Positions 1,723 through 2,775 of a stretch of 4,588 bases of DNA are shown here, piece by piece (the stretch's first letter is position 1; each line of letters opens with the position of its first letter). The position numbers were made by a program, and so were the translations under genes. Below the pieces are notes generated by a model. That model was not told the origin of the DNA. It made no database searches and was given only the letters and a program-made list of their open reading frames with translations. Source of the stretch: a virus (taxonomy: Duplodnaviria; Heunggongvirae; Uroviricota; Caudoviricetes); the IMG/VR virus record IMGVR_UViG_2700989171_000008. The stretch is one strand, 5' to 3'.

Positions 1723-1732
1723 NNNNNNNNNN
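1723..1732. other. Assembly gap (N10) of unknown true length
   Basis: Ten N. The first tRNA needs about 19 more nt to complete but the next tRNA's acceptor stem starts 1 nt after the N-run, so more than 10 bp are missing. Confidence 0.8.
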
Positions 1733-1733
1733 A

Positions 1734-1810
1734 CCGCCACTAGCTCATCAGGAAAGAGCGTCAACCCTTTAAGTTGAGTGTGCGAGGTTCGAGTCCCCGG
1801 TGGCGGTCCA
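1734..1810 (+). tRNA. tRNA, nominal anticodon UUU (Lys) but noncanonical; identity uncertain
   Basis: Cloverleaf folds: acceptor CCGCCAC/GTGGCGG (C1:G72), D-arm GCTC...GAGC, anticodon stem TCAAC/GTTGA with loop CCTTTAA, T-loop TTCGAGT, discriminator T plus CCA at 1808-1810. Anomalies: C at position 33 where U is nearly invariant, and an A-C mismatch in the T-stem. The true 5' end may lie in the gap. Confidence 0.5.
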
Positions 1811-1812
1811 GT

Positions 1813-1888
1813 GCCGACTTGGCTCAGTAGGTAGAGCAACTGACTTGTAATCAGTAGGTCACCAGTTCGATTCCGGTAGTCGGCACCA
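1813..1888 (+). tRNA. tRNA-Thr (anticodon UGU)
   Basis: Acceptor GCCGACT/AGTCGGC, D-arm GCTC/AGTAGGTA/GAGC, anticodon stem ACTGA/TCAGT with loop CTTGTAA (UGU at 1846-1848), T-loop TTCGATT, discriminator A plus CCA at 1886-1888; one A-C mismatch in the T-stem. Confidence 0.78.
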
Positions 1889-1891
1889 TAT

Positions 1892-1966
1892 GCGGGCATC
1901 GTATAATGGCTATTACCTCAGCCTTCCAAGCTGATGATGCGGGTTCGATTCCCGCTGCCCGCTCCA
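1892..1966 (+). tRNA. tRNA-Gly (anticodon UCC), glyT-like
   Basis: Acceptor GCGGGCA/TGCCCGC, D-loop with TATAATGG, anticodon stem TCAGC/GCTGA with loop CTTCCAA (UCC at 1925-1927), T-loop TTCGATT, CCA at 1964-1966. Appears identical or near-identical to E. coli glyT as recalled. Confidence 0.88.
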
Positions 1967-1972
1967 GTCAGA

Positions 1973-2018
1973 GTCTTTCAGTCTGCGATGATGGGAAATC
2001 CCGGAGTGACTGAAAGAC
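1973..2018 (+). other. Perfect 11-bp inverted repeat (stem-loop) just 3' of the tRNA cluster
   Basis: GTCTTTCAGTC (1973-1983) pairs with GACTGAAAGAC (2008-2018); the 24-nt loop contains a nested GGG-AAAT-CCC mini-hairpin (1993-2002). No clear U-tract follows. Confidence 0.5.
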
Positions 2019-2038
2019 GTTTAAGTTATGAATGATCG

Positions 2039-2247
2039 CTTTTTTTTGCAAAATTGCTGTGCAGAAATACTAACCTTCGGGCAGGCGATCATTCATAAGC
2101 ACTCTGCTTTTATTCCGATTAACTGTGAGTGGTTTGTTGGATAGAGTGCTTTCCTTATTGTATATATCGTTTCGCCCGCTTTTGCGGTTTTTTCTTTTCA
2201 AATCCCTTTCATTTCTCAGTGTAAAACTACGCCATCCGTTATTTGCG
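2039..2247 (+). repeat. Direct repeat copy 1 (about 209 bp, noncoding) ending at a gap
   Basis: Aligns base for base with 2258-2465 at a constant offset of 218, apart from 5 substitutions (2083, 2084, 2128, 2158, 2187) and a T-run of 8 versus 7. Confidence 0.85.
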
Positions 2248-2257
2248 NNNNNNNNNN
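2248..2257. other. Assembly gap (N10) of unknown true length
   Basis: Ten N placed exactly between the two near-identical repeat copies. Confidence 0.8.
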
Positions 2258-2465
2258 CTTTTTTTGCAAAATTGCTGTGCAGAAATACTAACCTTCGGGC
2301 GTGCGATCATTCATAAGCACTCTGCTTTTATTCCGATTAACTGTGGGTGGTTTGTTGGATAGAGTGCTTTCCTTACTGTATATATCGTTTCGCCCGCTTT
2401 TGCGTTTTTTTCTTTTCAAATCCCTTTCATTTCTCAGTGTAAAACTACGCCATCCGTTATTTGCG
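2258..2465 (+). repeat. Direct repeat copy 2 (about 208 bp), immediately upstream of the holin RBS
   Basis: About 97.5% identical to 2039-2247; followed directly by GGAGG (2465-2469) and the holin ATG at 2477. Confidence 0.85.
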
Positions 2466-2476
2466 GAGGTGAGGCT

Positions 2477-2692
2477 ATGAAATCCATGGACAAAATTTCA
2501 ACGGGCATTGCCTACGGCACCTCCGCAGGCAGTGCTGGCTACTGGTTTTTACAGTGGCTTGATCAGGTCAGTCCGTCACAGTGGGCTGCGATTGGTGTAC
2601 TGGGGAGTCTGGTTCTGGGCTTCCTGACTTATCTGACAAATCTGTACTTCAAAATCAGAGAAGACAAGCGTAAGGCTGCGAGAGGTGAATAA
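2477..2692 (+). CDS. S: S21-type pinholin with dual-start motif (antiholin from Met1, holin from Met4)
   Basis: 71 aa, [71 protein letters not shown], essentially the phage 21 S2171/S2168 sequence as recalled. Two in-frame starts (2477 and 2486), two hydrophobic segments, GGAGG 7 nt upstream. Confidence 0.9.
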
Positions 2693-2765
2693 TGTCGCCA
2701 TCATTACGGTAAGCGCCCCATCAGCGACGTCTTGTGAAAATTGTCCTGTCTGGCAACAATCGCGC

Positions 2766-2775
2766 NNNNNNNNNN
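2766..2775. other. Assembly gap (N10) of unknown true length
   Basis: Ten N immediately upstream of a second, in-frame holin 3' segment. Confidence 0.8.

Follow-up and report, generated by a model that had tools for sequence, protein, structure and literature searches.

Three ten-base gaps in a lambdoid prophage scaffold: a probable composite of two similar prophages

Introduction

The DNA considered here (the window: a stretch of 4588 nt from IMG/VR virus record IMGVR_UViG_2700989171_000008, assigned to the Caudoviricetes) contains exactly three runs of N, each 10 nt long, at 1723-1732, 2248-2257 and 2766-2775. The question it raises is whether the sequences that meet at these runs ever lay side by side in a prophage. 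A preliminary description had placed all three runs at boundaries of duplication or truncation, and this placement is borne out: the first cuts a tRNA gene, the second is flanked by copies of 207 nt and the third is followed by a repeated holin 3' end. That repeats of such length and similarity should stand flush against N runs is far beyond chance.

The explanation that we favour, with a probability of about 0.85 taken as a whole, is that the window is a short-read scaffold in which contigs of two prophages have been strung together, the apparent duplications and the cut tRNA being artefacts of assembly. The source would then be a genome of the Shigella/enteroinvasive Escherichia coli lineage with at least two lambdoid prophages whose late regions are nearly identical. 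Our verdict on the three-gap feature is accordingly that of an assembly artefact and not a biological feature.

Reference sequences

The closest finished genome, E. coli FDAARGOS_944, carries both of the loci with which the window was compared. One, here called P1 (sequence L004), lies at about 0.65 Mb on the minus strand and the other, P2 (L005), at about 5.02 Mb on the plus strand, with about 0.70 Mb between them. Gap-free IMG/VR contigs of P1 type are L006, L007 and L008. The gap-free references of P2 type are L010, L011 and L013, together with L016 from the finished S. flexneri SFBU1023. Finished E. coli 2017-02-2CC (L015) is without the IS junctions of the window and has an intact YdfR-lysozyme arrangement downstream. 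A second scaffold of 4572 nt (IMG/VR UViG_2700989169_000005; L012 and L014), found through contigs C and D, is referred to as the twin scaffold.

Results and discussion

Overall organization

The N runs divide the window into four contigs, A to D (Table 1). Antiterminator Q, a class II holin, an endolysin and Rz/Rz1 are found by Pfam in this order on one strand, as in a lambdoid late and lysis module, with a gene order that matches annotated prophages; the genes come from two prophages. The same genes in the same order occur in the FDAARGOS_944 prophages, in phage PhiR47_1 and in the PPompW phages. The window differs from these regions in mixing two of them and in having rrrD interrupted by ISSfl3 and Rz/Rz1 by IS600, so that P1 and P2 are both predicted to be lysis-defective remnants.

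Table 1. Features of the window; positions count from its first base
Feature	Position	Strand	Remarks
Contig A	1-1722		P1 prophage
DUF968/HNH-like gene, 3' part	1-421	+	Pfam PF06147, E=3.9e-47; collinear with L004 and L008
RusA Holliday-junction resolvase gene	422-787	+	Pfam PF05866; ORF list
Antiterminator Q gene	784-1467	+	Pfam PF06323, E=3.6e-91
tRNA(CAU) (Ile2/Met), first 57 nt of 76	1666-1722	+	Aligns to L004 tRNA-Ile 5617-5673; 3' end of contig A
Gap 1 (N10)	1723-1732		Stands for 19 bases, AATCCAGCAAGGGCCACCA; 19 nt in L004, L006, L007 and L008
Contig B	1733-2247		P1
tRNA-Lys(UUU)	1734-1810	+	ARAGORN; Rfam 44.4 bits; alignment; near start of contig B
tRNA-Thr(UGU)	1813-1888	+	ARAGORN; Rfam 72.5 bits
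tRNA-Gly(UCC)	1892-1966	+	ARAGORN; Rfam 64.9 bits
S0, 207 nt identical in P1 and P2	1833-2039		Maximal exact matches L006/L013; mismatch map
Copy 1, P1 allele of tRNA-holin intergenic region	2041-2247		3' end of contig B; last 60 nt within S
Gap 2 (N10), negative gap	2248-2257		Flanks overlap by 207-209 nt on references
Contig C (middle contig)	2258-2765		508 nt; P2 type left, P1 type right
Copy 2, P2 allele of tRNA-holin intergenic region	2258-2405		Start of contig C
S, 121 nt identical in P1 and P2	2406-2526		Holin upstream region and first 50 nt of holin gene
Class II (P21-type) holin gene	2477-2692	+	Pfam PF04971, E=1.4e-35; P1 type from 2527
Endolysin gene rrrD, first 17 nt, cut by IS	2692-2708	+	Intact L004 ...TTACG/CAAGG, window ...TTACG/GTAAGCG
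ISSfl3 (IS66 family) terminus, 57 nt	2709-2765		3' end of contig C
Gap 3 (N10), join of P1 tail to P2 lysis module	2766-2775		Adjacency in no reference
Contig D	2776-4588		P2
P2-type holin, 3' 126 nt	2776-2901	+	No start codon in window; 100% to L010 and L013; start of contig D
209-aa ORF (P2)	2905-3534	+	PHROG 1085, function unknown; hypothetical in L005
Endolysin (phage lysozyme) gene (P2)	3600-4133	+	Pfam PF00959
Rz spanin gene, embedded Rz1 from 4350	4130-4531	+	Pfam PF03245, PF06085; both cut by IS600
IS600 (IS3 family) terminus, 57 nt	4532-4588		3' end of contig D and of window

The two parents can be told apart by their gene content. P1 reads DUF968-RusA-Q-tRNA Ile/Lys/Thr/Gly-holin-rrrD'::ISSfl3, and P2 reads ...tRNA Ile/Arg/Thr/Gly-holin-209-aa ORF-lysozyme-Rz::IS600; the only exact matches of 57 nt or more between them (L006 against L013) are the segments S0 and S. 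Contigs A, B and C are colinear on FDAARGOS_944 P1, in which rrrD is intact, with identities of 99.1-99.7%, and D falls on P2 of the same genome (99.3%). This genome has six places that match C and 15 that match D.

Sister contigs in IMG/VR are 100% identical to A, to B, to D and to each half of C. Contig A followed by the 19 nt AATCCAGCAAGGGCCACCA, contig B and window 2466-2765 (2556 nt), which is probably the true P1, is an exact substring of the gap-free L008. The likely true P2, made up of window 2258-2526, 40 nt and contig D (2122 nt), is contained unchanged in both L013 and L011, which are also free of gaps. Every base of the window other than N is thus covered by two separate prophage sequences, and the proposal that contigs of near-identical lambdoid prophages had been joined is supported.

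Gap 1 and the tRNA cluster

Contig A ends 57 nt into a tRNA(CAU) gene of 76 nt, annotated in relatives as tRNA-Ile or tRNA-Met; the truncation reported at the first gap is real. The stump was called in the window neither by ARAGORN nor by Rfam (E<=0.01). Addition of the 19 nt found in the P1 references gives a complete tRNA, and A with these 19 nt and B is an exact substring of L008. From this comparison the order of A and then B across gap 1 appears to be correct. We also considered that the N runs might be masks of true length, and rejected this: gap 1 corresponds to 19 nt in every P1 reference, and with 10 nt the tRNA would remain incomplete.

The tRNA-Lys(UUU) that follows the gap is specific to P1. 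Its homologue in the same slot of P2 is tRNA-Arg(UCU), identical at 66 of 77 positions and with a compensatory change in the acceptor stem; the lysine tRNA looks like an anticodon-switched paralogue. It also has C at position 33 in place of the near-universal U and a mismatched T stem, and scores 44 bits with Rfam against 65-72 for its neighbours.

Gap 2 and the 207-nt copies

The copies around the second gap had been given as 97.5% identical; we count 202 identical positions out of 207 (97.6%) between 2041-2247 and 2259-2465, in direct orientation, both copies abutting the N run. Both align to one set of reference coordinates, and at the third gap C 2567-2692 and D 2776-2901 likewise share theirs. 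On L001, for example, window 2247 maps to 3754 and window 2258 to 3547, a backward step that is repeated in L002, L004, L006, L007 and L008. At the five differences between the copies, B has the P1 (L004) allele at four and C the P2 allele at all five, and B is an exact substring of L008. Each of the gap-free sequences L001, L002, L004-L008, L010, L011, L013, L015 and L016 has a single copy. What reads as a duplication is, judged by these alignments, one locus written twice, with its P1 and P2 alleles in tandem.

Contig C

Contig C changes type within S. Its left part, 2258-2526, recurs base for base in L013, L011 and L016, all of P2 type, and differs from P1 at 2301, 2302, 2346, 2376 and 2405; from 2406 to 2765 it is an exact substring of the P1 contigs L008, L006 and L007. 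None of the seven gap-free P1 and P2 sister contigs tested contains it exactly over its whole length. In IMG/VR the same hybrid haplotype occurs otherwise only in the twin scaffold, which itself contains N. The twin has the same hybrid C and the same D, with contig limits shifted by 44-60 nt, and probably derives from the same lineage and pipeline as the window; with it the artefact recurs in public viral databases.

We regard contig C as probably a mis-threaded path through the assembly, a true recombinant being less probable. That such a haplotype is impossible in nature can be dismissed, as L015, which lacks the IS junctions of the window, is identical to C over 2303-2679; for this reason a chimeric origin of C is held to be probable only.

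Gap 3

Contig C ends 73 nt beyond the stop codon of the holin gene, inside ISSfl3. Since the element interrupts rrrD 17 nt from its start, the P1 prophage would lack an endolysin. The junction of rrrD' and ISSfl3 is identical in the three IMG/VR contigs L006-L008, and may be taken as a marker of the lineage. In L006 and L008 the element runs on past the point where contig C stops.

On the other side of the gap, the very first base of contig D already belongs to a second copy of the holin 3' end. The copy had been described as 90% identical to that in C; its position stands, while the identity measured is 110 of 126 (87.3%). In L010, L011, L013 and L016 an intact P2 holin precedes D, and 40 nt of P2 holin sequence are missing between the left part of C and D. 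No reference that we compared has C next to D. The preliminary description had doubted the gene order at every gap. Its doubt is upheld at gap 3, which by comparison with the references would be the only join between prophages, but not at gaps 1 and 2, where the order agrees with P1 in all references.

Origin of the scaffold

We propose that the assembler would have broken the contigs at sequence shared between copies, namely the tRNA(CAU) gene, S0, S and the IS ends. The contig ends coincide with such multi-copy boundaries. Contigs A, C and D each stop exactly 57 nt beyond their last unique base (1665, 2708 and 4531, respectively), inside the tRNA(CAU) gene, ISSfl3 and IS600; subtracting these 57 nt from the 76 of the tRNA gene leaves the 19 that are missing at gap 1. 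Contig C starts after S0 at its first P2-specific base, 2258, and D starts 40 nt after S. Contig B ends within S, at a distance of 60 nt rather than 57 from its last P1-specific base, and contig D does not begin at a base that distinguishes P1 from P2; for these ends a simple model of two copies and a single k fails. A two-copy model also had to be rejected for gap 1, where P1 and P2 have only 38 exact nt in common, so that at least one further tRNA(CAU) gene copy, a third and unobserved one, must be assumed. The pattern of ends nevertheless suggests a k-mer graph assembler that stops at a fixed distance inside repeats, with gaps padded to 10 N. In Velvet, for instance, a scaffold gap of small or negative size is filled up to 10 N, and downstream nodes lose their k-1 prefix. 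Our search of the literature for a documented convention of ten Ns found nothing specific to any assembler.

The scaffolder would then have joined the four contigs with a fixed minimum of 10 N whatever the real distance between them. The length of the runs is indeed constant and unrelated to the true distance between flanks: those of gap 1 lie +19 nt apart and those of gap 2 about -207 nt. On this model gap 1 would stand for the 19 missing bases, gap 2 would show a single intergenic region twice in succession, as its P1 and then its P2 allele, and gap 3 would place the P2 lysis genes behind the IS-truncated tail of P1. Read pairs derived from P1 would connect B with C, those derived from P2 would connect C with D, and the order A-B-C-D would result. 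Holding unique sequence of both prophages, C would attract links from both, and we infer that this is the most likely reason for a single scaffold. One hybrid contig spanning a shared stretch of 121 nt may thus tie two prophages together.

The start of contig D moves between sister assemblies, from holin position 2567 here to 2523 in L012 and 2507 in L009, as is expected of artefacts rather than of biological junctions. 'Negative gaps' have been described before as an artefact of scaffolds; the PBJelly paper (PMC3504050) gives a definition. The present case shares with them the fixed N runs, the flanks that overlap yet were left unmerged over a few differing bases and the breaks at repeats. 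It differs in that the overlap is between two paralogous prophage alleles, not the result of sequencing error, and in that the two sides of gap 3 belong to different prophages.

Alternative explanations

The composite reading has to be set against one in which contig C is genuine. A crossover within the 121-nt S, between P1 and P2 lying in inverse orientation in the source strain, would give reciprocal hybrid prophages and possibly an inversion of about 0.7 Mb of the chromosome; A-B-(S)-D would then be the true order, and C the other product, wrongly inserted into the scaffold. We judge this combination of events to be unlikely. Recombination between resident lambdoid prophages is well known in the genomes of E. 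coli O157 and Shigella, where it gives rise to mosaicism and inversions, and C, of P2 type to the left of S and of P1 type to its right, has the structure expected of a crossover in the identical stretch. The scaffold does connect B to D. In FDAARGOS_944 P1 and P2 are on opposite strands. The twin scaffold has the same hybrid, and finished L015 naturally combines 2346G/2376C/2405T with a holin of P1 type, so the hybrid could be real. Unlike in those genomes, however, the switch seen in C may have arisen in the assembler rather than in the cell. The gap-free contigs with the IS junctions of this lineage are all parental: L006-L008 have the P1 allele with rrrD'::ISSfl3, and L010, L011, L013 and L016 the P2 allele with Rz::IS600. 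There was no sign of the reciprocal product, B-S-D, which was not assembled as a contig either. Moreover, a contig C unlinked to B would not have been placed by read pairs between B and D, and the twin may simply repeat an artefact of the same pipeline. Were the crossover real, the order Q-tRNAs-...-209-aa ORF-lysozyme would be genuine, a result of only mild interest, such recombination being well known.

Two further readings fit the data much less well. The sequence might be essentially right: in one prophage both the intergenic region and the holin 3' end would be truly duplicated in tandem, and the N runs would stand for a few bases only. Prophages do undergo duplications, and the copies here are direct and close together; this is nevertheless the least probable of the explanations, and we give it almost no weight. 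The second copy is found in none of the aligned gap-free references, on which B and C take the same coordinates, and the layout of the window is absent from the 5426 complete E. coli genomes, the best of which accommodate window 1-4530 within 3830 bp. The copies border directly on the N runs, they are alleles of two different prophages, and the end of ISSfl3 stands between the two holin 3' ends. Hardly more probable is an origin of the alleles in two strains, or in a contaminated culture, instead of in paralogous prophages of one genome. A mixed sample would also yield allelic contigs in tandem. Against it, P1 and P2 coexist in the single finished chromosome of FDAARGOS_944, and they differ in gene content (rrrD against the 209-aa ORF and lysozyme; tRNA-Lys against tRNA-Arg) as well as in their IS insertions. 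Multi-copy lambdoid modules are, besides, usual here: all 5426 complete E. coli genomes have some match to the window, with a median of five places per genome.

Consequences for annotation

With the two-prophage composite preferred, and with the true arrangement in the source strain deduced from relatives, the value of the result is practical only: it serves as a warning for annotation and for statements on gene order. Without it, one might report that a tRNA is truncated, that the sequence upstream of the holin is duplicated in tandem, that there is an additional, partial holin gene and that open reading frames extend through N runs. A prophage order of Q-holin-rrrD'-IS-holin'-lysozyme would be reported as well, and yet it probably does not exist. 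Three frames run through N with X in their translations (2125-2316, 2685-2882 and 2734-2901) and could give rise to spurious gene calls.

Other features of contigs A and D

Directly downstream of Q, contig A has a promoter-like site (1456-1484), followed at 1535-1558 by a strong GC hairpin with T runs on both sides. In location the two elements correspond to a Q-dependent late promoter and terminator.

The 209-aa ORF of contig D is without any match to a Pfam family. It lies between holin and endolysin, in the slot that YdfR (DUF1327) takes in related prophages, and it is rare: at least 80% of segment D is covered in only eight of the 5426 complete E. coli genomes.

The intact Rz gene of L005 parts from the window after 4530. 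IS600 is inserted at 4531/4532, and the same junction is present in five IMG/VR contigs, in S. flexneri SFBU1023 and in E. coli ECMA0423. The extra G at 4531 belongs neither to the intact Rz nor to the canonical TGAGG... end of the element.
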